Shown here piece by piece: positions 39,501-58,151 of a DNA stretch of 64,000 bases. Position 1 is the first letter of the stretch. Every line of letters begins with the position of its first letter. The DNA is from an uncultured Spirochaetales bacterium (GTDB lineage Bacteria > UBP6 > UBA1177 > JAKLFG01): the NCBI GenBank assembly GCA_964412895.1, contig CAYPQK010000001.1:5041-69040 (forward strand), read 5' to 3'. A model generated the notes under the pieces. That model saw only the letters and a program-made list of their open reading frames with translations. It did not search any database and was not told the origin of the DNA. Both the position numbers and the translations under genes were made by a program.

Positions 39501-42500
39501 ACGACGACCGCTCTTTCCTTCACGCCGTCCGCGGCGCTCGCCGAGGGCTTTGTCACGCTCTTTGTGCAGGCCCGCAACGGCGTCGGCACTTGGTCGGGCA
39601 GCGGGCTTTTCACCATCGAGATAGATATCACCGCCCCGGCGGCGCCGACGGTGACCGGCATAACGCCCACCAGCAACACCCAGCCGACTTGGTCGTGGGA
39701 CACCCCGACCGACGCGGTCGAGTTCCGTTACAGCTACGACGAATCTTCGTGGACCGTTACGACGGCCAATTCTTTTACCCCGGGCAGTGCGCTGATCGAC
39801 GACGCCTATACCCTTTATGTCCAAGCCCGCGACGCGGTCGGCAATTGGTCGACGAGCGGATCGTTCGAGATCGTGGTGGACACCGAGGCGCCGGTCGCGC
39901 CGACGGTGACCGGTACCACGCCGACCAACGACACGACGCCAACTTGGTCGTGGAATACCCCGGTCGGCGCGGTCAACTTCCGCTACAGCTACACCGATGG
40001 ATCGGGCTGGACCGAAACAACCGGCACCAGCTACACCGCCGCCCCGGCCCTTACCGCCGGTACCTACACGCTCTATGTGCAGGCCGCCGACGCTACCGGT
40101 AACTGGTCGACGAGCGGCAGTTTCGCCATCACGATAGACACCACCGCGCCGACGCTGGTTATCGGTGCGCCGTCGGCGACCGTTGCGAAGAACGGGACCG
40201 ATGTGACCTATACCGTCACTTACTCCGGCGCCGACACCGTGACGCTGGCGAACGGCAACATCACGCTCAACGCGACCGGCGGCGCCTCGGGCTCCGTCGC
40301 AGTGACCGGCACCGGCACGGTGACCCGCACCGTGACGATATCGAACCTGACCGGGAACGGCACGCTCGGCATCAGCATCGCGGCCGGAACGGCGAGCGAC
40401 ACGGCGGGGAACACCGCCCTCGCGGCCGGTCCGTCGGCCACCTTCACGGTCGATAACACCGCGCCGACCGTGGTCATCGATCCGGTCAATGCCTGCACCC
40501 GCCGGACGACCGGCACGATCTCGTTCACCGTGACCGGCGCGACCACCACCACCTGCCGGTTCGACACCCCCGCCGGGCTCGGCACACCGGGCGCCTGCGG
40601 CGGCTCCTACGGATATACCCTCGTCGATGGCGACGGCACCTATACCCTCACCGTCACGGCGACCGACGATGCCGGCAACAGCGGCTCGGACGATGCCTTC
40701 TTCTCGCTCAACACCACCACGCCGACCGTCCAGTGGTTCCTGCCGGCCAGCGGCACCAGCTACAAGGCCGGTTCTGCGGTGCCGAGTTTCGTCTACCGCA
40801 CCAAGAACCTCGAGGCGGGCGAAATGGTCGAGATCATAGATGCTGACACCGGACTTGCCTTGGCCAGCGGGATCACCGCCGGATCGCTCTGCAACGCGAC
40901 CGAGGATGTCTCGATACCGCTCGATCTGCCCGACAAGTGCGGCACCTACAAACTCTACGCCAAGGTCAACGACGGCGTCGACTCCGTTGATCGCTACACC
41001 GATAATCTTACGGCACTTCCGGCGACCCAGCGTACCTACACCTTCGACCGCGACGAGCCGGTCATCTCCTCCTTCGTGGTGAATAACGACGCCGACAGCA
41101 ACAATGTCCTCATCTCGACCGAGGATGCCGACGGCATCGCGGGCAACGGGATGCAGGCCGATATCACCATCACGGTACAGGACGCCATCGACATCGGCCG
41201 CACCGTGACGCTCCGCAACAAGACGACCGGCAACACCTACACCGCGACGGTCGTGGGCGATAAAACCGCCACCTTCACCGGCATCACGATACCGGAAGGG
41301 ATCAACTCCTTCGGCGCGACGCTGGTCGACTGCGGCGGCAACACCTCCGCCGAGAGCGCGAAGACCATCACCGTCGATACCACCCCGCCGAGCGTCCTGT
41401 TCCAAGGCCCGACCGGCGTGACGCCGGGCCATCCGCTCTGGCTCACCTCGCGCGATGGCACCGTGGTCGGCGACGAACTGATCGGACAGGAGCTGAAGTT
41501 CAAGATAACGGGCGACTGGGATAACGCCACCCCGGTGGTCAAGCATTTCGTGTACGACTATGCCGATGCGCCCGTGGGTGCGGCCCATACCTATACCCTC
41601 GGCGAAATGGACATCGTCGGCACCGAGGTGAGCATCGACCTCGACGGCTCGGACGATCCCGCCGCGCCGCTCGCCTACAACAAACACAAGTTCGAGATCA
41701 CCGTCGAGGACGCGAACGGCAACATCCGCGTCGCCTCGCGCACCTACGAGGGCGACCCCAAGATCCCGAACGCCGTCATTTCCTATCCGACCGACGAACT
41801 GGTACTCGATGTCACAAAAGATGAGGACGCGGTCGCGTCGGGCGTCCAGTTCACGCTGCACCTCGATCTGACCAAGCTCGCCACCCCGACCGGCACCGAC
41901 TCGACCATCGATATCCTCGCGATACCGATAACGGCGCTCGGCGGCACCGAGGATGGTACCCGCAGCCGCAAATCGTGGAACGGTTTCATCGCCGACACCG
42001 ACGGCGCCGCTCAGACCTTCCCGAACGACGGCACCTTCCTGCGGCTCGGTGACGGCTTCTGGCGCCTGACGGTCAAGGTGACCGACGACCACCAGAATGT
42101 CTACGACACCGCTCTCCTGCCGGTCGCTCAACAGATCGATGTCGATGTGGTGACCGATGTTGCCTCTTCGTCGCTCTATCTCAGTAACGATAAACTCATC
42201 AACGGTACCCAGACCGCCCCGACATGGCTCAACAGCAACGACGGCGGTCCCACCTACGATCTGTATGTCGAGACCGATTCCCCGAACGGCACGAACAACG
42301 CCTGCATAAATGTCAACGCCGGAGGCGACATCTGCGCTGATGTGGACGCCGGCCGTGCCGAATTCACCGCGGTGGCGCTCACCACCGGCGGGGTCGAGAA
42401 CACCATCGTGTTGACGGTCAACAACGGCGTTGCGGTCGCGACCGACACCTACTATGTCCGCGCCGACAACACCGATCCGACGCTCGATCCGGCGACCGAT

Positions 42501-44597
42501 GTCAATCCGGAGCCCTATGTCCACGGCGCCGGTATCTGGGAGATCGGCTACGGTTATGACGACGACATCGACCATGACACCACCGCGATACTCGAACTCG
42601 ACGGCGCCTCGGTGAACCGGCTCATCTTCGTCATCGGCAACATCGAGGATGTGGCGGGCTACACGACCCACGGGACCGTCGTCCTGACCCCGGTCGACGC
42701 GATCGGCGGGACCACCACCGTCAATATCGCCGAGGACGGCGCCGACATGATGGCCGAATTCACGAACCTCACCTTCGAGGACAGCGTCATCGGCGGTCAG
42801 ACCGACATCGAGATGCTGGTGACGATAACCGAACAGCCCTCCGGCAACACCTACACCAAAACGATCTTCGTCCATGTCAATCTGGAGAAACCCGAAGGTA
42901 TCACCCCGACCGTGACCACCGATCCGGCCCGCGGCGAATCTTTCGTTCAGTGGAATGCCGTCGTCGGCAACAATTCGGCCTACGCCGGTGCGTTCCAGAA
43001 CCGCGTGTACGAATATCAGGTGAAGTATGAACAGTATGGCGGCGCCTGTTCGCTCGATGACAGCGAAAGTGCGTTCGACACCGGCGTCGCGATCACTCCG
43101 CTGGCCGACTTCTCGGTGGCCGATCCGTCGCTCAACGGCGATGATTTCGTCGCGCCCAAAGCGGCGGGCGAAGCGCAGAACTACATGTTCTACCTAAAGA
43201 AACGGTCGAATATCGCCCTCACCCAGACCGCCGACATCCACCGGAACGGCGATCCCTACTGCTTCGCGGTCCGCGCCAGCGACGGCATCTATGCGCAGGA
43301 CGGCACGATACTTGTGACAAATACCTCGCCCATCTTGTCTACCAATGTTGTGGATAAGGGAGCGATACAGTTGACCTCTAATGAGCTGATAGCAACGGCC
43401 GCGGGTGCCCATTCAACCATGAATATCAAGAATATGGGCGACATCAACGGCGATACCAAGACCGATTTTGTCATTTCCGATTCGGGTCGGCAGAAAGCGT
43501 ATGTGTTCATCAGCAACGCGGTAGGCGCTCCGACAAAACTGGAACTGGTCAATCCGGTGGATGTCGGTATCACCTCTTTCGGGTATCGTCTCGCCCTCGC
43601 CGACCTTAATGGTGATGGATTCACGGATGTTCTGGTAAGCGATGTCGGCACGAAGAGCATCCATATTTATTATGGTATAGCCAATTCGGTCAATACCGCT
43701 CGCGGCGATAAGATCACCTTTGTCGATACCATATCCGACCTTTCTGGTATCGGCGATTTCAATGGCGACGGATGTCATGATCTTGTTGTCGGGCAGGCAT
43801 CGTATGACGATCCGGGGAATGCGGCCCCCGGCGACCAGACGGGGCGGGCTTTCGTGGTTTATGGTGACGACAAAGGCGCCGCGGGAAAGACCTGCATCGG
43901 CGATTATACTACGCAGGTCGGCGTCTCTTATCTCGGTTCAGCCGCCGGCGAACGGTTCGGATACAATGTCCGGAAAATCGGGAACATCAAGAACGAAATG
44001 AATGGCACCGTGCCCTACGGTTGTTTTGTCGGCGGACATTATGACAATGTCAATCCGGCATCCGCCAAGATCACTAAGGCCAAAGTGTTCTATGGTTCCG
44101 CTGCTCCGGTCGGCGGCAATATCACCTCCTATGATGTCACCGTTAACGGTCTTGCTCAACTTCGCACCCTCTTCTTCGGGAAACTCAACGGTGACGATTT
44201 CTCCGATTTCGGCATCATTGACAGCGGTAAGATAAAATTCTTCTACGGGTCGGCCGCCGGTACCGTTTTCCCGGGCGTATGGACCGAAGGGACCAATCAG
44301 ATCACCCGTAGCGACATCATGGATGAAGTGGCGGGCGTCGAAAGCGGCGTGTGGGGATTGGGCAGTTCCGGATATGCCGAAGATATCAACGACGATGGGC
44401 TGACCGATTTCTTCATCAACGGAGAAAAGGATCAGTATATGTATAGCGGGATGGGCACCTTCTTTACGATGCACCCCGCTCTCTATATGGGTCTTCCCAT
44501 AGGGGCAGGCAGTTCACAGTCGACGATCCTTTCCTACGGACTGGTGGTGTGTAACCGCAACACCGATGCCGGTAATTGTATGTTGTATTATCGTTAA
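36540..44597 (+). CDS. Giant (2693 aa) surface adhesin-like lipoprotein with tandem Ig-like repeats and C-terminal FG-GAP/VCBS repeats
   Basis: GGGAG RBS. Signal plus lipobox VGGC. Six tandem repeats of about 85 aa (TPTNDTTPxWSW...YRYSxxDxxxW...). C-terminal GDxNGDGxxD integrin-alpha-like repeats. Confidence 0.85.
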   Translation: MKRIVVALIWIMFLSLVVGGCSTKDQCNADTDCKTGYACGDDKKCHEIQVALLFQDIADGQTLTVADDLDKSDEAIQINVTVAAQATAGSIKDGTAITLEVKSSAAETSDGDTVNGTAATATKSYAGILVNGFARFLNIPFAEGQHTVTAYLTLSPAIKVTATLTATYEQTDTLVMRYYKGGTTPTMLEGATLDDNDDLNKEAANFQVKMEAVTTGYADGQVVEIFIEGYSITWAPAIIEDGVASFPSFVVPIWADIVMRVKVADVEDTLAFSAVSAESCGFALDIQNNDRFGMADDTSAGLSGLQKMLTISDVTLCSTGSEIEIYIDGVPGTDEPDETLTLGAASVQQSITLPESANQTDTRTVTVVMKDDDSSATGQMTVTGLFVDITAPTLSVTAPLDNTTLTPVDDTNTSLEGVQIAVTGSASDSLSDEVTVEVRDGTTLLGDTTGTGDYSVDDVSFTATNEALTLAVTARDAIGNETVVEVPLKVYVNDPVIAFQTICARTPVMNMQLSSADDGDQLAGGVQCAVIVRTTDIESASTEVSLNINDEDPIVETIGTGGLTLFDMVTLPDGEDSLTARVMHLGTAYQTGITVQVDATLPVVTLTLTPTVDGGFAQSVDADFAFSCSEADCEYSYRIDSGALSAYATTATAEYTALAEGLHTFAVQARDPFGNVGDLTVFNWTIDHTAPAAPTVTGVTPTNDTTPEWSWNTPTGTVEFRYSTDQTNWTTTAVTAFTPAPALAEGDQILYVQGRDAAGNWSASGSFTITIDTTALSAPVVSGTTPTNDTTPKWSWDAITDAVEYRYSYTDGSGWTTTADNFFIPVTALTAGDHTLFVQARDAAENWSDSGWFTITIDLTAPAAPEVLGTTPTNDTTPNWSWIPVADAVNYRYSYDEMTWTETVDTTFTPTTQLAAGTYTLFVQAQDAAGNWSLSGSKEVVIDLSTPNAPVVTGVTPTTDTTPTWSWGAVTDAVEYRYSYTDGSGWATTTALSFTPSAALAEGFVTLFVQARNGVGTWSGSGLFTIEIDITAPAAPTVTGITPTSNTQPTWSWDTPTDAVEFRYSYDESSWTVTTANSFTPGSALIDDAYTLYVQARDAVGNWSTSGSFEIVVDTEAPVAPTVTGTTPTNDTTPTWSWNTPVGAVNFRYSYTDGSGWTETTGTSYTAAPALTAGTYTLYVQAADATGNWSTSGSFAITIDTTAPTLVIGAPSATVAKNGTDVTYTVTYSGADTVTLANGNITLNATGGASGSVAVTGTGTVTRTVTISNLTGNGTLGISIAAGTASDTAGNTALAAGPSATFTVDNTAPTVVIDPVNACTRRTTGTISFTVTGATTTTCRFDTPAGLGTPGACGGSYGYTLVDGDGTYTLTVTATDDAGNSGSDDAFFSLNTTTPTVQWFLPASGTSYKAGSAVPSFVYRTKNLEAGEMVEIIDADTGLALASGITAGSLCNATEDVSIPLDLPDKCGTYKLYAKVNDGVDSVDRYTDNLTALPATQRTYTFDRDEPVISSFVVNNDADSNNVLISTEDADGIAGNGMQADITITVQDAIDIGRTVTLRNKTTGNTYTATVVGDKTATFTGITIPEGINSFGATLVDCGGNTSAESAKTITVDTTPPSVLFQGPTGVTPGHPLWLTSRDGTVVGDELIGQELKFKITGDWDNATPVVKHFVYDYADAPVGAAHTYTLGEMDIVGTEVSIDLDGSDDPAAPLAYNKHKFEITVEDANGNIRVASRTYEGDPKIPNAVISYPTDELVLDVTKDEDAVASGVQFTLHLDLTKLATPTGTDSTIDILAIPITALGGTEDGTRSRKSWNGFIADTDGAAQTFPNDGTFLRLGDGFWRLTVKVTDDHQNVYDTALLPVAQQIDVDVVTDVASSSLYLSNDKLINGTQTAPTWLNSNDGGPTYDLYVETDSPNGTNNACINVNAGGDICADVDAGRAEFTAVALTTGGVENTIVLTVNNGVAVATDTYYVRADNTDPTLDPATDVNPEPYVHGAGIWEIGYGYDDDIDHDTTAILELDGASVNRLIFVIGNIEDVAGYTTHGTVVLTPVDAIGGTTTVNIAEDGADMMAEFTNLTFEDSVIGGQTDIEMLVTITEQPSGNTYTKTIFVHVNLEKPEGITPTVTTDPARGESFVQWNAVVGNNSAYAGAFQNRVYEYQVKYEQYGGACSLDDSESAFDTGVAITPLADFSVADPSLNGDDFVAPKAAGEAQNYMFYLKKRSNIALTQTADIHRNGDPYCFAVRASDGIYAQDGTILVTNTSPILSTNVVDKGAIQLTSNELIATAAGAHSTMNIKNMGDINGDTKTDFVISDSGRQKAYVFISNAVGAPTKLELVNPVDVGITSFGYRLALADLNGDGFTDVLVSDVGTKSIHIYYGIANSVNTARGDKITFVDTISDLSGIGDFNGDGCHDLVVGQASYDDPGNAAPGDQTGRAFVVYGDDKGAAGKTCIGDYTTQVGVSYLGSAAGERFGYNVRKIGNIKNEMNGTVPYGCFVGGHYDNVNPASAKITKAKVFYGSAAPVGGNITSYDVTVNGLAQLRTLFFGKLNGDDFSDFGIIDSGKIKFFYGSAAGTVFPGVWTEGTNQITRSDIMDEVAGVESGVWGLGSSGYAEDINDDGLTDFFINGEKDQYMYSGMGTFFTMHPALYMGLPIGAGSSQSTILSYGLVVCNRNTDAGNCMLYYR
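38600..40140 (+). repeat. Six tandem repeats of about 255 bp (85 aa) inside the giant adhesin gene
   Basis: Repeated protein motif APAAPTVTG(V/T)TPTNDTTPxWSW...(E/N)(F/Y)RYS...FTP..AL..G.YTL(F/Y)VQA(R/Q)DA(A/V)GNWS.SGSF.I.ID. Confidence 0.8.
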
Positions 44598-44611: not shown

Positions 44612-44740
44612 ATGTATAAGAAGCCTTGCGTCCTGGAAGAAAAGACCATAGAAAAAAGGATCCTTTTCGCCTGCACCCTTGATACGCCGGAAGACGAGTT
44701 CTGCGTAGACAGCATTTCTACCGCCGGCAGTCAAGGCTGA
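44612..44740 (+). CDS. Small ORF (42 aa) encoding a candidate RiPP precursor peptide (not in the ORF track)
   Basis: GGGAGGAA RBS 5 nt upstream of the ATG. Sequence MYKKPCVLEEKTIEKRILFACTLDTPEDEFCVDSISTAGSQG with 3 Cys. Locally lower GC. Sits 15 nt after the giant gene and 19 nt before the peptidase gene. Confidence 0.5.
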   Translation: MYKKPCVLEEKTIEKRILFACTLDTPEDEFCVDSISTAGSQG

Positions 44741-44759: not shown

Positions 44760-45203
44760 ATGAATAATTTTTCCATCGACGAACTCATTGCAACCTTCTC
44801 TACCGATGGCGGTCTCGGCGTGGTGCTGTTCGGCGCACAGAACTCCATGCTGCCTTCCATTCGCCCCGGAGAACTCATCCACATCGCGCCGGTGGATCGC
44901 GACCGTCTGCGTTCCGGCGATGTGGTGGTCTTCCGCACCGGCGAAGTGCTCGTGGCGCACCGGCTCGTCTGGAAACGCGGCTTCGTCGCGCGGACCAAGG
45001 GCGACAACAATCCCTATTGCGACCCAGCCATACCGGTGTTCGACATCGTCGGCGTGGTCGAAGGAAAGAAGTCGCGGTGGGCGTTCTGCTACTATCTCGT
45101 GCGGAACCGGCTTCGCCACTACACGCCCCGTCCGGCGCGACTGCTGTTCTCGGAGTTGAAGAATAAACTGCTCGGCCGGAAACGGTGGATGGAACACCTA
45201 TGA
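44760..45203 (+). CDS. Clan SF (signal-peptidase I / LexA-like S24/S26) serine peptidase-like protein
   Basis: Motifs GAQNSMLPSIRPGELI, GDVVVFRTGEVLVAHRLVWKRG and VARTKGDNNP resemble the Ser-Lys dyad boxes of S24/S26 peptidases. Its 3' end overlaps the rSAM gene. Confidence 0.55.
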   Translation: MNNFSIDELIATFSTDGGLGVVLFGAQNSMLPSIRPGELIHIAPVDRDRLRSGDVVVFRTGEVLVAHRLVWKRGFVARTKGDNNPYCDPAIPVFDIVGVVEGKKSRWAFCYYLVRNRLRHYTPRPARLLFSELKNKLLGRKRWMEHL

Positions 45204-46213
45204 CCATCAAACGCCCCGGCATCCTTTTCGAGGTGGCGGACCGCTGCGATGCGCGGTGTCTGCACTGTTACCAGCCGCGGGAATGCGCTCACCGGCTCAT
45301 GTCGCTCGCCGAGATCGAACGGGTGCTCGACATCCTTGCCGATAACGAATATCTCGATGTCACCTTCAGCGGCTACGAGCCGTTCACCAATCCCGACCTG
45401 TTCAAGATCATCGAGGCGGCCCGCAAGCGCCGGTTCTTCGTCAATCTCAAGACCAACGGTCTCCATCTCACCGCCGACAATGTCGCGCGGCTGAAGGCGC
45501 TCCATATCGGCACGGTCCATGTCTCCCTCTATTCGCCCGACCGCGATGAACACGACCGCGCCGCCGGTGTCCCCGGGGCGTACGACCGTATCATGACCGG
45601 CCTCGACCTTCTGCGTGAGGCAGGCATAAAGGCCATGCTTGCCGCGCCGCTTTTGCATCCGCTCCCCGATCTCGCGCGGCTCACCGCCTTTGCCAAAGAG
45701 CGCGATCTGCAGCTGGTCATCGACTACGGTTTGTTCAGTTCGTTCGACAAACGGCCCGAAGTCGAGGCGGTGAAGCTGACCGAAGCGGAGCTTGAGACGG
45801 CGATCCGTTTTCAGTACGGCATAGAAGGCGACGAGATGAATTTCTATGCGCCGAAGGAGGCTTCGTTCCTTTGCCACTACGGTGATCCTTCCACTTTCCG
45901 CATAGACTGCGCGGGCGGCATTTATGCCTGCGGCAAATGCACCGTGCCGCTCGGCAACCTGCTGACCGACGATTTTGCCGCGTTGGTGCAGAGGGCGGCG
46001 GCGGAACGGCCGCGCATCATCCGCGACCGGGAATGCAACGACTGCGACCTGTTCCCGTACTGTAGCCCCTGTCCCGCCGAAGCGTTATTGGACGGCGGCT
46101 TTCTCTGCGGCTGTTCGGCGGTACGCAAACGGATCGCCCAGATCAAGCGCCGGATCGGCAGCGCAGGAACAAAAAGGACCGGCGATGCCGCGGAGGGTCC
46201 GTGTCAGGTTTGA
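45185..46213 (+). CDS. Radical SAM enzyme with C-terminal SPASM domain (peptide-modifying maturase-like)
   Basis: CxxxCxxC motif in RCDARCLHCY. A C-terminal Cys cluster (CAGGIYACGKC...CNDCDLFPYCSPC) is typical of SPASM/twitch domains. Confidence 0.85.
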   Translation: MDGTPMTIKRPGILFEVADRCDARCLHCYQPRECAHRLMSLAEIERVLDILADNEYLDVTFSGYEPFTNPDLFKIIEAARKRRFFVNLKTNGLHLTADNVARLKALHIGTVHVSLYSPDRDEHDRAAGVPGAYDRIMTGLDLLREAGIKAMLAAPLLHPLPDLARLTAFAKERDLQLVIDYGLFSSFDKRPEVEAVKLTEAELETAIRFQYGIEGDEMNFYAPKEASFLCHYGDPSTFRIDCAGGIYACGKCTVPLGNLLTDDFAALVQRAAAERPRIIRDRECNDCDLFPYCSPCPAEALLDGGFLCGCSAVRKRIAQIKRRIGSAGTKRTGDAAEGPCQV

Positions 46214-46953
46214 AGACCCGCTGTTTTTCGATAGCAGGCTATCTCCTGAATATATCGTATGCCCCCCGGATGATCTTTCCCGCGCCGTTCCGGTTGTTTG
46301 AGACCGCAACACCGAATGAACTTCTTCTTCCTATAACCACCCAAGAACATTCCGATATCAACGACATTCGACGAGTCAACGGCGCATGGCGGATATCACG
46401 GCACCGGCCGTACCTCTATCTGCCCAAAGTGCTGGCCTACGAAGGCTTCGAGCGCGAGGAACTGTTCCTGCTCGTCCATTCCTGCTTTCTTGTTGATCGA
46501 GGGGGATGGAGCCATCTCTTTCTCGCCACTTCGGGGACCGGGAAGAGTACGTTGGCCCGCAAGATGCGCGGCCTCATGACCGGCGGCAACGACGAGACCA
46601 ATGTCCTCTGCCGTCGCGCCGGTATTCTTTACGGTTATTCGACCCCCTTCTACACGATATCGAAGCTCAAGAACGCCGTCATCTCCAATATCTCCGCGCC
46701 GCTCAAACGGGTCTATCTCCTGCGCAAGACCGAAGAGCCGTCGCGTATCGGTGAGCCGGTCGCCGGAGATGTACTGTGGCGCTATCTGGTCGAGGGACAG
46801 GTGAGCACACCGTACAGTAAACGCGAATATTTTTCCGCCTACCACCGCATGGTGAACGACCTCTGCGACTGCCACCCCGTCCATCCTTTCCATCACAACT
46901 TGACCGATCCGCCCGAACGGATCGCGGCGCTCCTCGAAAGCGGCGACCGGTAA
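46201..46953 (+). CDS. HPr kinase/phosphorylase-like (HprK C-terminal domain) P-loop protein
   Basis: P-loop LATSGTGKSTLA in an HprK-like context. GTG start overlapping the rSAM stop. Exact start uncertain (alternative ATG at 46270). Confidence 0.55.
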   Translation: MSGLKTRCFSIAGYLLNISYAPRMIFPAPFRLFETATPNELLLPITTQEHSDINDIRRVNGAWRISRHRPYLYLPKVLAYEGFEREELFLLVHSCFLVDRGGWSHLFLATSGTGKSTLARKMRGLMTGGNDETNVLCRRAGILYGYSTPFYTISKLKNAVISNISAPLKRVYLLRKTEEPSRIGEPVAGDVLWRYLVEGQVSTPYSKREYFSAYHRMVNDLCDCHPVHPFHHNLTDPPERIAALLESGDR

Positions 46954-46973
46954 AACATACTAAAAGAATCGTT

Positions 46974-47031
46974 AGTAGGCCCCGGCCTACTTGTTGTCGA
47001 TAGGCGTCGGCCTACAAGTGTTGCTTTTTTG
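46974..47031 (+). terminator. Probable rho-independent terminator ending the PqqD-to-HprK-like operon
   Basis: Two GC hairpins (GTAGGccccggCCTAC and TAGGCgtcgGCCTA) followed by TTGCTTTTTT. Confidence 0.45.
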
Positions 47032-47132
47032 ATTGCGGAGATTACTTCTTAGAATCATAGAGCTTTTCTATTAAAGATCATCAAGGATGTTTATTTGCAG
47101 AGTATTTTCAAGCTGTTATAACATTTTTTCTG

Positions 47133-47161
47133 TTGACAAAGTTCCCTTACGAGGATATGCT
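47133..47161 (+). promoter_or_regulatory. Sigma70-like promoter upstream of the second small peptide ORF
   Basis: TTGACA, 17 nt spacer, TATGCT. Confidence 0.45.
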
Positions 47162-47202
47162 TGCGCTGTTTTGTTTGTTGAAAAAAGATATTTTTTGAAA
47201 TC

Positions 47203-47352
47203 ATGATGAATTCTCGCGGCTACGAAAAACCGGTTATAATTGAAGAACTCGTACTGGAAAAAGAACTTCTCTTTGCCTGCCTTTTTCATAACCGGAATCA
47301 GTGCGAACCTATCTGCCGCAACCCCGGGCAAAGCGCTGGGGAGCCTTGTTGA
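47203..47352 (+). CDS. Small ORF (49 aa), second candidate precursor peptide paralogous to 44612..44740 (not in the ORF track)
   Basis: MMNSRGYEKPVIIEELVLEKELLFACLFHNRNQCEPICRNPGQSAGEPC. Shares Y-x-K-P-x-[VI]-[LI]-E-E-x-x-[IL]-E-K-x-[IL]-L-F-A-C with the first peptide. 4 Cys. Lies in an AT-rich intergenic region. No clear SD. Confidence 0.42.
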   Translation: MMNSRGYEKPVIIEELVLEKELLFACLFHNRNQCEPICRNPGQSAGEPC

Positions 47353-47441
47353 CACCGTCGAACACCGGTAACCTCCGCTCTTCTTGCTTTTCCGAACCGA
47401 AGAAGATATAAATCACCGGTACTCTTTGGCGTGGCAGGGAA

Positions 47442-48593
47442 ATGAAGAAGAACGCCGGAAATGAAAAAACGACCATACTTATAGTGGAAGACGATCCCGG
47501 ACTATCGAAGCTCATCGACATCTCTCTCAAAGCTCACGGGTGGGGAACGATAGCGGCCTTTTCGGGCGAAGAGGCGTTGGCGATGTCCCGGGACCGGCGG
47601 CCGCGGCTGATCCTCCTTGACTACTCACCCCCCGATATGTCGGGGTCCGACTTCATCGACGCCGCCGAACGGATAGCGTTCCCGTTGCCCCCTTTTATAG
47701 TGGCGACCGGCCGCGGAGACGAACGGATAGCGGTCGAGATGATGAAACGGGGCGCCCGCGACTACATCGTCAAGGATTCTCAGTTCCTCAACACTTTGAG
47801 CATAGCGGTCGAACGGGTATTGGAACAACTGGAAACGGAGCGGCGGCTGAAAGAGACCGAACGACTCCTGCGGGAACACGACGCGGCGCTCATCGCCTCC
47901 CGGGAACAGCTCCAGATATTCGCCGAACGGTTGCTCATCGTACCGGAACAGGAGCGGGCCCGCATCGCCCGCGAGATCCACGACCTGTTGGCGCAGGACC
48001 TGATCCGCCTGAAGATAGATCTGGTCTGGCTGAACGGACAGTTCGCCAAGATGACCCCGCTTCCCGTTCTTCTCAAAGAACGGGTCGTCGAGATGATCCA
48101 GATAGCGGACGGCGCGATCACCTGCGTGCAAAAGATCGCCACCGAACTGCGTCCGGCGGTGCTCGACAGTCTCGGGCTGTGCGCCGCGGTGGAATGGCAG
48201 GCCCGTGAATTTCAGGAACGGACCGGCATTCAGTGTCTGGTGAAAGTGCCGGAAAAAGATCTTCCGGTGGACAGGGATTTCACTATTGCCATTTTTCGTA
48301 TCCTGCAGGAGAGTCTGACCAATGTACGGCGGCACGCCAACGCAACGCGGGTGGATGTCCTGCTACGGCAAAAGGCCGGATATCTGTTCCTCAGGGTACA
48401 GGATAACGGATCCGGCATAACACCGACGGCGCTCCACGATCCGCTTTCCATCGGGCTTACCGGTATGCGGGAGCGGGCGGTGCTTCTCGGTGGTCGGATC
48501 GAGATCACCGGCAAGCCGGGGGCGGGGACGACGGTCGAGGTCCGGTTGCCGCTTTCGAAAATAGGAAAAAAACGGGAGGCGGCTCCGTTATGA
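47442..48593 (+). CDS. Hybrid REC-HisKA_3-HATPase_c sensor kinase (NarL-partner type, no extracytoplasmic sensor)
   Basis: N-terminal receiver ILIVEDDP...LLDYSPPDM. HisKA_3 H-box ERARIAREIHDLLAQ. HATPase G-box. Confidence 0.85.
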   Translation: MKKNAGNEKTTILIVEDDPGLSKLIDISLKAHGWGTIAAFSGEEALAMSRDRRPRLILLDYSPPDMSGSDFIDAAERIAFPLPPFIVATGRGDERIAVEMMKRGARDYIVKDSQFLNTLSIAVERVLEQLETERRLKETERLLREHDAALIASREQLQIFAERLLIVPEQERARIAREIHDLLAQDLIRLKIDLVWLNGQFAKMTPLPVLLKERVVEMIQIADGAITCVQKIATELRPAVLDSLGLCAAVEWQAREFQERTGIQCLVKVPEKDLPVDRDFTIAIFRILQESLTNVRRHANATRVDVLLRQKAGYLFLRVQDNGSGITPTALHDPLSIGLTGMRERAVLLGGRIEITGKPGAGTTVEVRLPLSKIGKKREAAPL

Positions 48594-49213
48594 ATATTCT
48601 GATCGCGGACGATCATGCCATTGTGCGGAAAGGGTTAGCCCAACTTTTGGTCGACGAGTTCCCCGGCGTGTCGATCGGCGAGACCGCCGGCACGCAGGAA
48701 ACGCTGGCCGAGCTGTCGCTCCGGCGGTGGGATGTATTGGTGCTCGACATCTTCATGCCGGGGTCCGGCGGACTCACGGTGCTTGACGAAGTGAAGCGCC
48801 AACAGCCGCGACTGCCGGTGCTGGTCCTGAGCACCGCGCCGGAAGAACAGATGGCGGCCCGGGTCCTGAAAGCGGGGGCGAGCGGCTATCTCAATAAACA
48901 GTGCGCTCCCGAGGAATTGGTCAATGCGGTCAGAAAGATACTCGCTCACGGCCGCTATGTCAGCGTCACGATGGCGGAACGGCTCGCCGCCGATATCGGC
49001 CGGCCCGAACGATCCCTGCAGGAAGAACTCTCCGATAGGGAATACACCGTCCTACGGATGCTCGTGGCGGGCAGATCGATCAAAGATATCGCGGCCGAAC
49101 TGAATATCAGCCCGAAAACGGTGAGTACCTTCCACACCCGGATATGGGGCAAGCTCCGCGTCACCAACGACGCCGACATGGTCCGTTACGCGCTGGATCA
49201 CGGCATCTCCTGA
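48590..49213 (+). CDS. NarL/LuxR-family response regulator (REC plus HTH_LuxR)
   Basis: ILIADDH...VLVLDIFMPG receiver. C-terminal LuxR HTH LSDREYTVLRMLVAGRSIKDIAAELNISPKTVSTF. ATGA overlap with the upstream kinase. Confidence 0.9.
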   Translation: MNILIADDHAIVRKGLAQLLVDEFPGVSIGETAGTQETLAELSLRRWDVLVLDIFMPGSGGLTVLDEVKRQQPRLPVLVLSTAPEEQMAARVLKAGASGYLNKQCAPEELVNAVRKILAHGRYVSVTMAERLAADIGRPERSLQEELSDREYTVLRMLVAGRSIKDIAAELNISPKTVSTFHTRIWGKLRVTNDADMVRYALDHGIS

Positions 49214-49341
49214 CCGTTTCACGCTCTTCGTAAGCGCAATCCTACAAAAGAAAAGGCGTCGTCCTACAGAAAAGCGACCGTGAAAAAGATATTCTGTTCC
49301 CAGTGAGGTGAATGGTCCGGGAATGGAAAATGGAGGTCGTC

Positions 49342-50850
49342 ATGAAAGGAATTGTTGGGCTTGGCGCATGGTTGATGGCGGTTATGTTCGTCTCCTCCTG
49401 TGGGGGCGAGGAGCCGGAGCAGGAGGTTTTCGTTTCGCTTTCCGGCCGCACCGCGACGGCGCTCGCCACGGTAAGCAATATCATAGAGGTCAATCAGAAA
49501 GCGGCCAACTTCGGCATTGCGGTCACCTCGGTGGGCGATGTGAACGGTGACGGTTATGGCGATGTGGCCGTCGGGGCCAATTTTTATGACAACGGGCAGA
49601 TCGACGAGGGGATGCTGTTCATCTATCACGGAACGGCGACCGGGATCAAGACCGCCTATGCCATACGGCTCGAATCGAATCAAAAGGATGCCCGTCTCGG
49701 CTGGTCGGTCGCCTCTGCGGGCGATGTGAACGGCGACGGCTACGGCGATATGATCGTCAGCGCGTACCGGTACGACAGCGGCCAGACCGACGAAGGAGTG
49801 GCGTTCGTATATCACGGTTCTGCGACCGGCATCGGTCCTGTCTACGCCCGACGGCTCGAAGTTGATCAGGCGAACGCCTCTTTCGGCATTTCGGTCGCGG
49901 CGGCGGGCGATGTGAACGGCGACGGCTACGGTGATGTGATCGTCGGTGCCTTCTTGTACGACAACGGACAGAACGACGAAGGGGCCGCCTTCATCTATCA
50001 CGGATCGGCGACCGGCATCGGTGCGCAGTATGCCCGGAGACTGGAAATGGATCAGGCGGGCGCGTGGTTCGGTTATTCGGTCGCGTCGACGGGTGATGTG
50101 AACGGCGACGGGTACGACGATGTGGTCGTCGGCGCTTTTCTGTACAACAACGGACAGAACGACGAAGGGGCCGCGTTCATCTATCATGGTTCGGCGACCG
50201 GCATCGGCACGACTGCGGACCGCAGGATCGAACCGGATCAGGCGGGCGCCTACTTCGGCTATTCGGTCGCGTCGGCGGGCGATGTGAACGGCGACGGCTT
50301 CGACGATGTGGTCGTCGGCGCTTATTTGTACGACCACGGACAGACCGACGAAGGAGCCGCTTTTATGTATCACGGCTCGGCGAATGGCTGCGGTACGGTA
50401 TACGACCGGATGATCGAACCGGATCAGGCGGGAGCGAATTTCGGCGCCGCGGTCGCGTCGGCGGGCGATGTGAACGGTGACGGGTACGGCGATGTGGTCG
50501 TCGGCGCCCGCTCGTATGACGGCAACAAGACCGACGAGGGGGCCGTTTTCATCTATCGCGGCTCGGCTAACGGCCTGAATGTAGCGACGAACCAGATGTT
50601 CGAATCGAATCAGGCGGATGCCTTTTTCGGCCGGTCGGTCGCGTCGGCGGGCGACATGAACGGCGACGGCTACGGCGATGTGCTGGTGGGGGCAAGTCTG
50701 TACGATAACGGCCAATATGACGAAGGCGCCGCGTTCTTCTATCACGGTTCGTCGTCCGGGCTCTGTATAGGCCGTTGCCCGGAAGATAGCGGCACTTCCA
50801 GCGAAACGACAACGGAACTCTCCTCCCCTCCCAAAAATAAGCGGCACTAA
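49342..50850 (+). CDS. FG-GAP repeat (integrin-alpha-like 7-bladed beta-propeller) lipoprotein
   Basis: GGAGG RBS. Signal plus lipobox VSSCG. Seven about 61-aa repeats with GDVNGDGYGDVxVGA...DEGAAFIYHGSATG. Confidence 0.8.
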   Translation: MKGIVGLGAWLMAVMFVSSCGGEEPEQEVFVSLSGRTATALATVSNIIEVNQKAANFGIAVTSVGDVNGDGYGDVAVGANFYDNGQIDEGMLFIYHGTATGIKTAYAIRLESNQKDARLGWSVASAGDVNGDGYGDMIVSAYRYDSGQTDEGVAFVYHGSATGIGPVYARRLEVDQANASFGISVAAAGDVNGDGYGDVIVGAFLYDNGQNDEGAAFIYHGSATGIGAQYARRLEMDQAGAWFGYSVASTGDVNGDGYDDVVVGAFLYNNGQNDEGAAFIYHGSATGIGTTADRRIEPDQAGAYFGYSVASAGDVNGDGFDDVVVGAYLYDHGQTDEGAAFMYHGSANGCGTVYDRMIEPDQAGANFGAAVASAGDVNGDGYGDVVVGARSYDGNKTDEGAVFIYRGSANGLNVATNQMFESNQADAFFGRSVASAGDMNGDGYGDVLVGASLYDNGQYDEGAAFFYHGSSSGLCIGRCPEDSGTSSETTTELSSPPKNKRH

Positions 50851-50862: not shown

Positions 50863-51486
50863 GTGAAGATATTGATCGCGGATGATCATGCGGTCGTGCG
50901 GAAAGGATTGGCCCGTCTTCTGGTCGACGAATTTCCCGATGTAACGATAGGCGAAGCCTCCGATTCTCAGGAAACGCTGAACGAGATATCCTTTCAACGG
51001 TGGGACCTGCTGGTGCTCGATCTTTTCATGCCGGGGATCGGCGGATCGGCGGTGCTCGACGAAGTGCGCCGGCTGTATCCGAAAATGCCGGTGCTGATTC
51101 TCAGCACCGCGCCGGAAGAACAGATGGCGGCGCGGATGCTTAAAGCGGGCGCGAACGGCTATCTCAACAAACAGTGCGCTCCCGAAGAGTTGGTGGGCGC
51201 GGTCAGAAAGGTTCTGGCGGGCGGCCGGTATGTCAGTTCCGGCATGGCGGAGCGGTTGGCCGAACAGATGGACCGCACCAGAAAAAGTCCGCAGGAAGAG
51301 CTCTCCGACCGGGAATACACCGTACTACGGGCGTTGGTCGCGGGCAGATCGGTCCGAGACATAGCGCAGGAATTGGGCATCAGCCCCAAAACGGTCAGTA
51401 CTTTTCACACCCGGATCTGGCGCAAACTGGGCGTCCGAAACGATGCCGACATGATCCGCTATGCACTGGGAAAAGGGTGGTCCTGA
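50863..51486 (+). CDS. NarL/LuxR-family response regulator, paralog (about 75% aa identity) of 48590..49213
   Basis: Same architecture and near-identical motif blocks (STAPEEQMAAR, GYLNKQCAPEEL, LSDREYTVLR, ISPKTVSTFHTRIW). Confidence 0.9.
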   Translation: MKILIADDHAVVRKGLARLLVDEFPDVTIGEASDSQETLNEISFQRWDLLVLDLFMPGIGGSAVLDEVRRLYPKMPVLILSTAPEEQMAARMLKAGANGYLNKQCAPEELVGAVRKVLAGGRYVSSGMAERLAEQMDRTRKSPQEELSDREYTVLRALVAGRSVRDIAQELGISPKTVSTFHTRIWRKLGVRNDADMIRYALGKGWS

Positions 51487-51561: not shown

Positions 51562-52434
51562 ATGAACCAGCTTAAAATATACACCGCACTGCGGGATGCG
51601 CAGTTCGAGAATCAGGTACATGCGCTCATCCACGCCAACGATCACGAGGCTCATCAGATACATCTCGACGACATCATCAACGATGTGCGGGCCTATGACG
51701 GCCTGTTCATCGTCGAGGAGAGTTATCACGGCATCCTTGAACTGATAGAGTTCCACAATTCCTGTAAATTCAATCTCTTGCCGGTCATCTTCGTGTTCGA
51801 TCCCAAATCGCCTGACAAAGAATGGGTGAACTCTGTTCGCTATCCCTATAAATACTTTGCCGTCGAGCACAAACTGTTGCCGCTCCTGTTCACCCGCATC
51901 GTCGCCCACATGGACGAACTGCGGCGCACCAAATTCAACGAATTCGTCCTTGAGCACCACAAACCGGTGCTGGAACCGTTCTTCAACGAGAAGCTCTCGT
52001 TCCGCGGGGCGTTGGGGCAGGCGCTCGCTCATCTGCTCGACTTCCTGTTCGCCGATAAGGGGTCCATCATGCTCCTCAACGACAAGGGGAATCTCGTCAT
52101 CGAGGCGTCGACCAAACCGCACCTCATCGGGCTGGAGGTGGTGCCCGATCCCAACTCGCCCGCGTGGAGCGTCATGGAAACGAAAAAGCCGTTGTTCGTC
52201 GAGGACATCTCGAAGGATCAGCGTTTCAAGAAGAAAAGCGACGGCTACAGCAAGGATTACTTTCTCATCGTCCCGATATTCTTGAACGGCGAGATCCACG
52301 GCGTGCTCAATCTCACCGACAAGATGGTGTCGCTCTTCTTCGACCGGAGCGACCTCCTGCGTGCCCGGAATTTTCTGCGGCTGTTGGAGCCGATGCTCGC
52401 CCTTCATAGCGGCATAGCGGTAGATATAACCTGA
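51562..52434 (+). CDS. GAF domain protein with degenerate N-terminal receiver-like region
   Basis: C-terminal GAF-like block GSIMLLNDKGNLVIEAS...PLFVEDISKDQRF...HGVLNLTDK. Confidence 0.6.
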   Translation: MNQLKIYTALRDAQFENQVHALIHANDHEAHQIHLDDIINDVRAYDGLFIVEESYHGILELIEFHNSCKFNLLPVIFVFDPKSPDKEWVNSVRYPYKYFAVEHKLLPLLFTRIVAHMDELRRTKFNEFVLEHHKPVLEPFFNEKLSFRGALGQALAHLLDFLFADKGSIMLLNDKGNLVIEASTKPHLIGLEVVPDPNSPAWSVMETKKPLFVEDISKDQRFKKKSDGYSKDYFLIVPIFLNGEIHGVLNLTDKMVSLFFDRSDLLRARNFLRLLEPMLALHSGIAVDIT

Positions 52435-52464
52435 TATCGTGGCCGTCTCTGGGGAGGGGCGTAG

Positions 52465-54144
52465 ATGCCGTCATTTCGCAAATATGTCCGTTATATGCCC
52501 GATCTCGCCGGGATACTTTTCTTTATCGCCGGCGTGGCCGGTACGGCGGACGGCCGATTCCCGTTCTGTTTTCTTATGGCATGGGTGCTTATCGGTCTGC
52601 CGATATTCGCCCGTTTATTGCGCAATATCGAGCAGGGTCGTTTTCTCGATGAATATTTCCTGATAACCATCGCCACCGGCGGTGCGGTCGCCATCGGTAG
52701 GTATCCCGAGGCGGTGCTCGTCATCCTGCTCTACCGGCTGGGCGATCATCTGCTGTCCCGCGCGGTGGACCGGACGCATGCCGCGATCCGGTCGCTCATC
52801 GACCGGCGGCCGGACCGGCCCGATGAGAACGGCGACGATCCCACGAAGGTCGAACCGGAATCGACACCGGCCGATCGGGCGCAAAGTCTGGCGCTGGTAA
52901 CACGGGCGGCGGCGCGGAAAGCCCGCTCGGAGCGGTTCATCACCCGTTTCGCCCGCTGGTATACGCCGGTCATAGTGTTCGCGGCGGTCGTCATGACCTT
53001 TCTGCCGCCGCTCCTGTCGGCCGACATAACGCACGCCCAAAGCGTCTACCGCGCCCTGACCTTTCTGGCGATCGCCTGTCCCAGCGCCCTGCTCGTATCG
53101 ATACCGCTGGGCTGGTACGCCGCCATCGGCACCGCATCGCAGAGGGGAATTCTCATCAAAGGGGCCGATCATCTCGATATCCTGAGCCGCGCCGGCGCCA
53201 TACTCTTCGGTAAGACCGGCACGCTTACCAGAGGACGGTACACGGTCGTCGAGGTCCTTCCGGCGGAAGGGATGCCCAAAGATCGGTTCCTCTACTATGC
53301 GGCGCTGGCCGAATCGCAGGCGGCGCATCCCATCGCCGCCGCCATCCGCGCCGCCTACGGCAAACCGATACCCTACGGCACGGCCTCCGAGATAGCCGAA
53401 ACGCCGGGAAAAGGGGTGAGCGCGCAGGTGGAGGGACAGGAGATACTGGCCGGTACCGCCGGTTTTTTGCGTGAACAGGGGGTGCCCCCGGGTCCCGACG
53501 CCGTTTTCGGGACCACCATCCATGTAGCGCTCAGCCGCTACTACATCGGCCGTCTGGTGGTCGCCGACGAACTGCGCGAAGTGGTCGTCGCGCTGGTCGC
53601 CGCTCTCAAGAAAAAGGGGATCCGATACCTAGCGCTCCTTTCGGGCGACAATGAGAACATGGTGCGTCAAACGGCCCGCGCGGCGGGGATAGCCGAAGCG
53701 TACGGAGCGCTTTCGCCGGCCGCCAAGCTGGAAAAAATGGAACAGATCCTTTCCACGGTCCGCGGACCGGTCGTCTTCATGGGCGACGGTATCGACGACG
53801 CGCCGCTTCTTGCCCGCGCCGATGTCGGTATTTCTCTCTGCGCCGCGCCCGGTACGGTCGCCATCGAGACGGCCGATATCGTACTGAAAGGGGGCGATCC
53901 CACGCTTCTTACCGAAGTTCTGCATCTTGCCCGCCGCGCCCGCGCCATCGTCGGACAGAATCTATTCTTGGCGCTCGCGGTGAAAGGGACGCTTCTTTTT
54001 CTCGCCGCGGTCGGCATCGCGTCGCTCTGGGAAGCGGTCTTCGCCGACACCATCGCGGCGCTTACCACCATTCTCAACGCCTCGCGCCTTATCGCCGGGG
54101 GAACGGCCAAAGAAGAAATAACGAATTCGAGGATAGTGCCATGA
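52465..54144 (+). CDS. Truncated/degenerate P1B-type (heavy-metal) P-type ATPase homolog lacking the actuator domain and the phospho-Asp
   Basis: CPS in TM (IACPSALL). Phosphorylation-site motif reads FGKTGTLT where DKTGTLT is expected. Hinge GDGIDDAP. No TGES actuator domain. Only 559 aa. Confidence 0.7.
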   Translation: MPSFRKYVRYMPDLAGILFFIAGVAGTADGRFPFCFLMAWVLIGLPIFARLLRNIEQGRFLDEYFLITIATGGAVAIGRYPEAVLVILLYRLGDHLLSRAVDRTHAAIRSLIDRRPDRPDENGDDPTKVEPESTPADRAQSLALVTRAAARKARSERFITRFARWYTPVIVFAAVVMTFLPPLLSADITHAQSVYRALTFLAIACPSALLVSIPLGWYAAIGTASQRGILIKGADHLDILSRAGAILFGKTGTLTRGRYTVVEVLPAEGMPKDRFLYYAALAESQAAHPIAAAIRAAYGKPIPYGTASEIAETPGKGVSAQVEGQEILAGTAGFLREQGVPPGPDAVFGTTIHVALSRYYIGRLVVADELREVVVALVAALKKKGIRYLALLSGDNENMVRQTARAAGIAEAYGALSPAAKLEKMEQILSTVRGPVVFMGDGIDDAPLLARADVGISLCAAPGTVAIETADIVLKGGDPTLLTEVLHLARRARAIVGQNLFLALAVKGTLLFLAAVGIASLWEAVFADTIAALTTILNASRLIAGGTAKEEITNSRIVP

Positions 54145-57100: not shown

Positions 57101-58148
57101 AGGAACGAACTACCTTCAGGTCTGCGACGGCGCCGACGGCAACCATGCGCAGGAGGCAGCTCTCTTCGCTCAGGGGGTCCGCGATGTCCTTGCGGGCAAG
57201 AGCGAGCGGTTCTCGATGGAATATCCCTGCAACAGTCCGCAGAAACCGCGCTGGTTCATCGGCCGCGTGACGCCATTCCCCGGCGAGGGAACGCGCCGCG
57301 TGGTGGTCGCCCACGAGAACAATACCGAACGCAAACTGTTCGCATTGGAGCGCGAGGAACTCATTAAGGCGTTGCAGGACAAGAACGACGAGATGGAAAG
57401 CATGCTCTACGCCAGTTCGCACGATCTGCGGACCCCGCTGGTGAGCATCATGGGCTTCAACAGTCTGATACAGCACGCCATTAAAGAGCTGTCTCTGCTT
57501 CTGGATAAGGAGCGCCCCGCCGCCGATATCTGTGCCGAAGCGCGGCCTATCATCACCGAAAAACTGCCGACCGCCAGTACCTATATTGGCAAAAGCGCCG
57601 AGAAGATGCAGGGACTCGTCGACGGTATCCTGAAACTCTCGCGGCTCGGCCGCGCCACCCACACATCGGAAATGATCGACATGAACGCATTGGTACGGCG
57701 GGTGCTCGCCACGCTCGATTTCCAGAAACAGCAGGCACATGCCGCGGTGAGCGTGGGTGATCTTCCCCCCTGCTGGGGCGATCCGCGCGAACTGGAACAG
57801 GCGTTCACCAATATCATCGACAATGCCGTCAAATACCGCGATCCGGCCCGCCCGCTTACTATTGCCATCACCGGGTCCTTGGCGGGACACTGTTCCCGCT
57901 ACGATATCGTCGATAACGGTATCGGCATGAAACCGGACCACTACGACCAGATATGGGGCCTTTTCTCGCGGCTCGACCCTAACGGGCCGGTACCGGGCGA
58001 AGGTATCGGGCTGGCGATGGTCAAGCGGATCGTCCAGCGCAACCACGGCAAGATATGGGTCGAGAGCGAAAAGGGCGTTGGAAGCAAATTTTATCTCTCG
58101 TTGTCGCGCGAAGGGAAAGAAAGTAATTACGAGAAGGAAAAGGGGTAA
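54141..58148 (+). CDS. Multi-PAS (at least 8 PAS/PAC) sensor histidine kinase
   Basis: Repeated PAS S-box modules separated by coiled LRESE(R/K) linkers. C-terminal HisKA (SHDLRTPL) and HATPase_c. Confidence 0.85.
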   Translation: MTVAWGLVLNIFFWGGLGIVALIAGLRYHRRWLADYREKDIKYRLLVENANDIVYSLTMGGVFTYVSPTWTKLLGHTVDEVENHPFQGFVHPDDLPLCLEALNNAVKTENRPVGVEYRVLHKDGSWRWHISNAAPIYDAEGTVVSYMGIARDITEGKQAEAKLRESERRMTSILENISLLSIMLDREGRITMCNDFFLDLTGWRRQEVLHESWFEVFLPADIRATIKESVFLNNIHAGTVPIHFENEIITKAGARRLIRWNNMLLRTKEGEVEGIACIGEDITDRYRAEEALRESKERYRLIAENTADSVTVQDLSLKFEYVSPSTTKMKGFSVEEVLAQTIEQVMTPESLQKVYRAFEEEMALEQSGTADPARSRVLVLEEYCKDGSTLWVENTLSFIRDEKQTPTGILSVSRDVTERKQADEALRESEFRFNQLAEQSRIIAWEVDARGLYTYVSHVAETVFGYTADELVGRKHFYDLHPEEGREMFKTAAFAAFERKETFENLINPVQAKDGHQVWLSTNGIPLLNANGTLRGYRGSDTDITERKQAEEALQKNKEAYKTLAENLPELIYRVHLHEKGRMEFFNDKVKELTGRTEKELRKGEICSIEPNIHPEDISRVVSTVKRAIEKGTAFEVSYRYIHKDGKTVHFYEHGQIIKDATGKPHYIDGIIQDITDRKRAEEALRKNEALLRTLIDTLPDLVWLKDPEGVYLTCNRRFEVFFGAKEAEIVGKTDYDFVDKDLADFFRRHDQAAMSAGKPTKNEEQVTFPSDGHQEILETIKTPIHGEAGTLIGVLGIGRDISERKRAEESLQKNEEKFRKAFHLIPESVVLSRLDDGVMVSVNEGFLNGVGYSREEAIGKSAEELRIWNDPNDRHRIIDMVRGHGLVENIETTFRTKNGDIRYALISATAIDIDDIPHLLNISRDITDRKKLENALRESERSLRSTIDGLSAHIAVLDESGTIILVNKAWRNFAEKNGIPAGKVSEGTNYLQVCDGADGNHAQEAALFAQGVRDVLAGKSERFSMEYPCNSPQKPRWFIGRVTPFPGEGTRRVVVAHENNTERKLFALEREELIKALQDKNDEMESMLYASSHDLRTPLVSIMGFNSLIQHAIKELSLLLDKERPAADICAEARPIITEKLPTASTYIGKSAEKMQGLVDGILKLSRLGRATHTSEMIDMNALVRRVLATLDFQKQQAHAAVSVGDLPPCWGDPRELEQAFTNIIDNAVKYRDPARPLTIAITGSLAGHCSRYDIVDNGIGMKPDHYDQIWGLFSRLDPNGPVPGEGIGLAMVKRIVQRNHGKIWVESEKGVGSKFYLSLSREGKESNYEKEKG

Positions 58149-58151
58149 ATC

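Follow-up and report, generated by a model that had tools for sequence, protein, structure and literature searches.

Families of precursor peptides for radical SAM (rSAM) enzymes are described regularly. In the SCIFF/ranthipeptide and sactipeptide systems (SkfA/SkfB, CteA/CteB), a short precursor with a conserved N terminus and a Cys-rich C terminus is encoded next to a SPASM/twitch rSAM enzyme, and the maturases typically carry an N-terminal RRE. For SCIFF-type peptides, which are rich in Cys and have conserved cores, the role of rSAM substrate is established. In the SynChlorMet (SCM) cassette, a ScmC-family protein (TIGR04249) is found beside two rSAM/SPASM proteins, ScmE and ScmF (TIGR04250/04251), a PqqD-like protein, ScmD, and a small peptide. 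To our knowledge, no function is known for ScmC-type proteins, and a literature search returned nothing relevant on SynChlorMet, on ScmC, or on an HPr kinase together with SPASM. Two further systems share single features with the locus described here. In thuricin CD (TrnA/TrnB with TrnC/TrnD), a single rSAM cluster contains a pair of paralogous precursors (PMC12093266), and HPr-kinase homologues phosphorylate Ser residues of RiPP precursors, with the lasso peptide pseudomycoidin being tailored by both a kinase and a nucleotidyltransferase (PMC8498205).

Here, we describe a small gene, pepB, in a 64,000-nt stretch of DNA (the window) from a rare, uncultured bacterial lineage. The original prediction took pepB for a member of a RiPP precursor family, paralogous to an upstream peptide gene (pepA); similarity, selection, and linkage to an rSAM gene support that interpretation, and we infer the RiPP function of pepB, every chemical step, and its biological role from context. 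We find that pepB is a genuine gene with its own promoter and consider it probable that it encodes the second of two anciently duplicated RiPP-like precursor peptides. The system resembles an rSAM/SPASM RiPP cluster, and judged from its gene content, the SynChlorMet cassette appears to be the nearest described system.

Results

The pepB ORF lies on the plus strand at positions 47203 to 47352 (49 codons plus a stop), and its translation is exactly the peptide originally given for it. The start codon kept among relatives is the second ATG (47206), which gives a peptide of 48 amino acids (aa). The surroundings are AT-rich, as had been claimed, with a GC content of 0.335 to 0.355 across 47000 to 47300 versus 0.595 over the whole window; the GC3 of pepB itself (0.47) is atypically low, with neighboring genes at 0.69 to 0.80. 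No Shine-Dalgarno sequence was found ahead of pepB, in contrast to pepA, which has a GGGAGG 6 nt upstream; one orthologue has AGGATG at the pepB start position. The peptide consists of a leader-like segment (YEKPVIIEELVLEKELLFAC; 47221 to 47280, plus strand), which is common to pepA, and a core-like segment (LFHNRNQCEPICRNPGQSAGEPC; 47281 to 47349, plus strand) with invariant Cys residues and a near-conserved Ser. Counting from the Cys at the end of the leader, the invariant Cys pattern is C-x7-C-x3-C-x10-C, and the last residue is a Cys.

To compare pepB among relatives, we used the contigs of the only ten relatives (55 to 100% identity) that the neighboring rSAM protein has among 5.8 billion clustered proteins, and an HMM profile built from all peptides was run over every fetched locus. 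An exact look-up of the window's rSAM protein itself matched no record. Two of the loci, L001 and L023, come from activated-sludge and digester samples. An intact pepB orthologue occupies the same place in two groups of loci, L001/2/15/19/23 (rSAM enzyme 85% identical) and L006-8/22 (83% identical). Pairwise comparisons among the window, the L001 group, and the L006 group gave dN/dS values of 0.10, 0.14, and 0.06, and third codon positions accounted for 20/30, 16/25, and 20/31 of the differences. Three-way invariance was 85%, 83%, and 44% at codon positions 1, 2, and 3, respectively, while the two shifted frames of the region gave dN/dS values of 0.9 to 3. The intergenic region outside the ORF is also conserved (63 to 75% three-way invariance). 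An antisense ORF of 79 aa (47116 to 47355, minus strand), which one public annotation calls at the orthologous locus L002, was considered and rejected, as a stop interrupts it in L006 and the periodicity by codon position agrees with the plus strand. An Rfam scan of 46500 to 47900 matched no RNA family. Beyond these loci, B-type ORFs persist at 44 to 58% protein identity and at another position in the locus. Given the low dN/dS, the codon periodicity, the interrupted antisense ORF of L006, and the negative Rfam scan, pepB is a protein-coding gene under purifying selection; the expectation that relatives would keep an intact ORF was borne out.

A sigma-70-type promoter-like site precedes the ORF on the plus strand, just as originally described, with TTGACA at 47133 to 47138, a 17-nt spacer, and TATGCT at 47156 to 47161 (10/12 matches; predicted transcription start near 47168). 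Among sigma-70-like sites, it scored best over the 3.4 kb examined. When the three loci are aligned, the −35 hexamer does not vary, the −10 hexamer reads TATACT in the two orthologous loci, and the spacing is fixed while the spacer has accumulated substitutions. Where the B gene occupies its other position, a promoter-like TTGACT-17-TATCTT is found just past the rSAM stop in L003 and L012, and a TTGACT −35 hexamer is found at the same place before the B gene in L004 and L021. The window as a whole contains 14 sites with at least 10/12 matches, compared to 3.0 ± 1.9 in block shuffles, and most of them lie just upstream of genes; thus, the organism appears to use such sigma-70-type promoters. 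The first gene of the upstream operon also has its own site of this kind (TTGACA-17-TATCAT at 36469).

Upstream of the pepB promoter, a terminator-like hairpin (GTAGGCC...GGCCTAC) followed by a T-tract spans 46972 to 47031 on the plus strand (ΔG of −30 kcal/mol; z score of −2.4). The hairpin is 72% invariant in the three-way alignment; a consensus scanner made no call there. It plausibly ends an operon that comprises the genes for a giant surface-type protein, pepA, a peptidase, an rSAM enzyme, and ScmC. The T-tract ends near 47031 and the pepB ORF begins about 170 nt later, not about 250 nt past the terminator as first stated; the figure of 250 nt is reached by counting from the ScmC stop (46953). 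The heptamer GTAGGCC/GGCCTAC occurs in three or four copies of alternating orientation between 46975 and 47017, which makes alternative hairpins possible, and this region is kept in L001 and L006, where it shows a single G-U pair and a single mismatch. After pepB, we found no significant hairpin (z score of −0.64) and no convincing terminator before the kinase gene that follows; transcription that starts at the pepB promoter could therefore continue into the downstream two-component genes. These alignments indicate that pepB has its own conserved promoter-like site, and it is probably transcribed separately from the upstream operon.

The A-type precursor gene, pepA (44612 to 44740, plus strand), starts 15 nt past the stop of the giant gene and encodes 42 aa, MYKKPCVLEEKTIEKRILFAC-TLDTPEDEFCVDSISTAGSQG (in full, MYKKPCVLEEKTIEKRILFACTLDTPEDEFCVDSISTAGSQG). 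Residues 7 to 26 of pepB (YEKPVIIEELVLEKELLFAC) align with pepA (YKKPCVLEEKTIEKRILFAC) at 11/20 identical positions, the number originally reported, with a BLOSUM62 local score of 69. This similarity is well beyond shuffled expectation (mean of 20.2, standard deviation of 4.2, and maximum of 44 in 5,000 shuffles of pepB), and the best unrelated ORF among the 1,229 six-frame ORFs of the window scored 36 to 39. The segment common to both peptides is Y-x-K-P-x3-E-E-x3-E-x3-[LF]-F-A-C; the first two Cys residues of A and B align, and the conserved block runs beyond the "leader" to the second of them. At the DNA level, the two leaders are no more than 55% identical, and third positions match at random (6/20); we conclude that the A/B duplication is old and that the likeness has been upheld at the protein level.

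Across relatives, the A-type and B-type peptides form separate orthologous groups. A-type peptides start with M-Y-I/K-K-P and have an acidic core and two conserved Cys residues, and B-type peptides start with G/R-Y-E-K-P and have four or five Cys residues, four of which are invariant. Over seven distinct B sequences, the invariant positions comprise Y-E-K-P, E-E, E, and F-x-C together with another three Cys residues (C-x3-C-x10-C), and a near-conserved Ser occurs in the contexts QS[AED], RSD, and KSD. The view of these peptides as a conserved leader with variable cores therefore needs to be split: the leader is indeed shared, but within each type the core is conserved and does not vary freely. 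A C-terminal S-x-A-G motif said to be shared by the two peptides did not hold up, since the position reads STAG in pepA and QSAG in pepB and QSEG, TASEG, or KGSEG in orthologues.

An exhaustive hmmsearch of 1.84 billion representative proteins, with an A+B profile made from the two window peptides, returned only four true matches, all from these loci. A word-indexed homologue search with pepB gave no match, and short peptides seem poorly covered there. We found no match to a peptide in Pfam or in NCBIfam, where 10 peptides were searched at E ≤ 10 with the SCIFF precursor model (TIGR03973) included, and most public annotations of the relatives leave the B gene uncalled. On these searches, the peptide family appears not to be covered by curated libraries and was found only in this cluster.

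The genes of the upstream operon all lie on the plus strand. The first (36516 to 44597) encodes a giant FG-GAP/Big_13 surface-type protein of 2,693 aa with a lipoprotein-like signal, and a homologous gene directly precedes the A-type peptide gene in all relatives. The giant protein is made up of tandem modules of about 90 aa (TPTNDTTP.WSW...YRYS). After pepA comes the gene for a soluble SipW/SEC11-type (S26/S24-like) signal-peptidase homologue (44760 to 45203), a candidate leader peptidase in which the SM.P, HR, and GDN motifs are invariant over seven orthologues; it scores 48.1 bits against TIGR02228 (cutoff, 51.85), and its best PDB match is SEC11. The rSAM enzyme (45200 to 46213) has a CxxxCxxC motif at residues 16 to 23, no N-terminal RRE extension, and a C-terminal seven-Cys SPASM-like motif in which the invariant Cys residues fit G-x4-C ... 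C-x2-C-x5-C-x2-C ... C. The Pfam SPASM model does not match this C terminus. The best NCBIfam matches of the enzyme are SPASM maturases, far below cutoff and with an alignment that covers the N-terminal half only, and its nearest solved relatives are the peptide-modifying enzymes SkfB (5e-12), followed by PqqE and CteB.

The last gene of the operon encodes the ScmC-family protein (46201 to 46953), which has an HPr-kinase-related P-loop (SGTGKST) that is invariant among homologues, and precomputed assignments to the Pfam ScmC family (PF27840) cover the window protein and all relatives. Weak matches to TIGR04249 (ScmC) and to HprK_rel_A (HprK-related kinase A) were obtained for 10/10 and 8/10 homologues, respectively; the window protein scores 19.4 bits against TIGR04249 (E value of 5.5e-4; cutoff, 125 bits), and the best of the 10 homologues reaches an E value of 1.1e-6. 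Because an AlphaFold2 model made from a 10-sequence alignment had a pLDDT of 36.5, the proposed kinase-like fold of ScmC rests on these weak HMM matches (E values of 1e-6 to 5e-4), which lie far under the curated cutoffs. No PqqD/RRE domain was detected in the peptidase, the rSAM enzyme, or ScmC (Pfam at E ≤ 1; NCBIfam at E ≤ 0.1), and the cluster contains no exporter or immunity gene.

Comparison with the described systems showed both shared and differing features. Like SynChlorMet, it has a ScmC-family protein beside an rSAM/SPASM-type enzyme and a small peptide; unlike SynChlorMet, it scores far below the equivalog cutoffs (19 bits versus 125 for ScmC and about 50 versus 400 for ScmE/F), has one rSAM/SPASM protein instead of two, has no detected counterpart of ScmD, and includes as extra components the SipW-type peptidase, the giant FG-GAP gene, and a conserved pair of precursor paralogues. 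With the SCIFF and sactipeptide systems, it shares the layout of precursor and neighboring enzyme, and the nearest solved relatives of the window enzyme include the maturases SkfB and CteB; however, none of the 10 peptides matches the SCIFF precursor model, and an N-terminal RRE, as is typical of those maturases, is missing from the window enzyme. Two paralogous precursors in one rSAM cluster recall thuricin CD, from which the locus differs in having a single rSAM enzyme, precursors in separate transcription units, and no sequence similarity. Finally, an HPr-kinase homologue is also a cluster member, and a tailoring enzyme, in the lasso peptides paeninodin and pseudomycoidin (PMC8498205), and the most distant relative, L014, pairs ScmC with an NTP_transf_5 nucleotidyltransferase encoded after it, reminiscent of pseudomycoidin and of the tailoring of phosphoglycosylated lasso peptides. 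In contrast to those clusters, the window has no lasso cyclase or B protein, and its ScmC is only a putative kinase. The last residue of pepB is a Cys and not a C-terminal Ser acceptor, but an internal Ser is near-conserved.

In close relatives, the cluster consists of the giant FG-GAP protein, pepA, the SipW-like peptidase, the rSAM/SPASM-like enzyme, and ScmC, and a B-type gene lies less than 1 kb from the rSAM enzyme in all lineages. The B gene follows ScmC in the window, in L001/2/15/19/23, and in L006-8/22, and it lies in a gap of about 250 nt between rSAM and ScmC in L003/16/25, L004/5/17/20/26, L012/13, and L018/21/24. The suggestion that related genomes carry peptide genes next to the rSAM module was right as to their presence and wrong as to a variable number: each of the seven close lineages in which both regions can be seen had exactly one A-type and one B-type peptide.

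Two loci, L009 (3726 to 7742) and L022 (1694 to 6147), the latter being the L006 lineage on a longer contig, carry a double module in the order giant, A', ScmC', rSAM', peptidase, rSAM, and ScmC, followed in L022 by pepB. The A' leader is divergent, and ScmC' and rSAM' are 33 to 34% identical to the conserved pair. These double modules suggest that rSAM and ScmC duplicate, diverge, and travel as a pair with their cognate peptide. Among the peptides of L022, only pepB has a canonical leader for the rSAM/ScmC pair that is orthologous to that of the window, which favors pepB being itself a substrate over its being a bystander. In L014 (4147 to 7487), where the rSAM enzyme is 55% identical, there is a single peptide of hybrid type (MKYERPRIIDESNIDKRLVFACSLEPFGDGCDGCGSTSGSAECA).

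Discussion

Our analysis points to pepB as, most likely, a precursor that is modified by the neighboring radical SAM enzyme set. The features generic to rSAM-dependent precursors that we found at the locus are a coding small ORF linked to an rSAM gene across relatives and a leader common to paralogues, joined to a distinct core with modifiable residues; an RRE/PqqD-like leader-recognition domain was not found in the cluster. The conserved promoter hexamers and their spacing, the strict co-occurrence of A and B, and the invariant rSAM and peptidase motifs count in favor of a RiPP-like precursor. Counting against it are the lack of an RRE/PqqD domain, of a Pfam SPASM match, and of an exporter or immunity gene, the missing Shine-Dalgarno sequence and low GC3 of pepB, and the fact that four Cys residues could equally bind metal.

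As a working mechanism, the shared N-terminal segment would dock both A and B onto the same machinery, the rSAM/ScmC pair encoded just upstream of pepB. The rSAM/SPASM-like enzyme may then cross-link or otherwise modify the Cys-containing core, with thioether chemistry of the sactipeptide or ranthipeptide type on the four invariant Cys residues being the most likely. ScmC could act with the rSAM enzyme as an ATP-dependent partner or as a kinase, for example, on the conserved Ser of the core; alternatively, it may be a leader-binding subunit that substitutes for the missing RRE. The soluble SipW-type peptidase would cut off the leader, and the separate transcription of pepB from its own strong promoter might supply this substrate in excess of the enzymes or under different control.

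On balance, it seems unlikely that A and B together make up an obligate two-component product of the thuricin CD kind, with neither half active alone. The strict content of one A plus one B in the seven close lineages fits such a product, and sactibiotics made from two precursors are known (PMC12093266). The single rSAM enzyme of the window is harder to reconcile with it, as are the single peptide of L014 and the divergent A' peptides, with enzymes of their own, that stand in place of A in L022 and L009. An obligate pair would refine our preferred explanation of pepB as a second precursor rather than exclude it.

A more far-reaching version of the precursor model, in which the locus represents a new class of RRE-less, ScmC-dependent radical SAM peptide system, is rather doubtful. 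In such a system, the HPr-kinase-like P-loop protein and the rSAM enzyme would be an obligate pair that recognizes the Y-x-K-P...F-A-C leader, and maturation of the acidic two-Cys A and the four-Cys B, anciently diverged, would yield two functionally coupled products. These products would be linked to the giant FG-GAP surface protein and might serve as a cell surface or signaling module and not as an antibiotic, and expression of pepB would be uncoupled from that of the enzymes and would feed the adjacent two-component system.

We regard it as improbable that pepB stays unmodified and, as a small Cys-rich protein, uses its four invariant Cys residues to bind Zn or Fe while docking on the partner of pepA by the shared N-terminal segment, as a regulator, chaperone, or decoy and not as a substrate. 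The fixed spacing of these residues, a core that is conserved and not hypervariable, and a cluster in which no exporter or RRE was detected would all suit such a protein. Against this, pepA, the paralogue of pepB, has just two conserved Cys residues, and B genes are strictly adjacent to the rSAM/ScmC pair in all lineages, with pepB providing the only canonical leader beside that pair in L022. Moreover, conserved, Cys-rich cores also occur in the SCIFF-type peptides, which are established as rSAM substrates.

Immediately downstream of pepB, positions 47442 to 49213 (plus strand) encode a soluble REC-HisKA_3-HATPase kinase and a LuxR-type response regulator, which raises the question of whether pepB is primarily a signaling peptide of this two-component system and is cotranscribed with it. 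Autoinduced bacteriocin loci offer a parallel. The order of pepB, kinase, and regulator is kept in three lineages, and no terminator separates pepB from the kinase gene; however, the kinase gene has a candidate promoter of its own that is conserved in the three-way alignment (TTGCTT-17-TATAAA; 47384 to 47412, plus strand), and by sequence and domains, the kinase contains neither a transmembrane nor an extracytoplasmic sensor region. The linkage is also limited to lineages in which pepB follows ScmC: in four others, where pepB occupies the gap between rSAM and ScmC, PilZ and unrelated genes come next, with no two-component system. A primary signaling role is, on this evidence, quite improbable. 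Finally, the notion that the ORF is a chance reading frame within a conserved noncoding regulatory region or small RNA, which the conservation of the whole intergenic region and the missing Shine-Dalgarno sequence might have favored, is effectively refuted by the codon-position periodicity and low dN/dS within pepB, by the retention of B-type ORFs in divergent relatives and at a different locus position, and by the absence of an Rfam match.

The B-type peptide is a constant and separately promoted part of a ScmC-plus-rSAM cluster. With two clear candidate substrates and no RRE, the locus offers a tractable entry to the role of the ScmC/rSAM pair. The peptide family is absent from curated libraries and mostly missed by gene callers, and genes of the pepB type, here in the genome of a rare lineage, are passed over by most annotation pipelines; they make a concrete case for better annotation of small ORFs beside rSAM genes.

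Some observations concern the flanks of these clusters. In L003 (8099 to 11639), L004 (4091 to 7603), and L021 (5781 to 9293), all with the B gene between rSAM and ScmC, no two-component genes follow; next come genes for a PilZ-domain protein, a Fer4_12-type rSAM enzyme, and a protein of about 675 aa without a family. The second, downstream rSAM gene of L003-type loci was considered as a paralogue of the cluster gene and rejected, as the two enzymes are unrelated. In the window, two LuxR-type response regulators (48590 to 49213 and 50863 to 51486) are 75% identical to each other and flank a 512-aa protein with seven FG-GAP repeats (49312 to 50850), an arrangement also present in L001 and L019. 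The region from 51562 to 60260 is dense in signaling genes, encoding a GAF protein, a P-type ATPase-like protein, a 1,335-aa multi-PAS histidine kinase, and a PAS-GGDEF cyclase.
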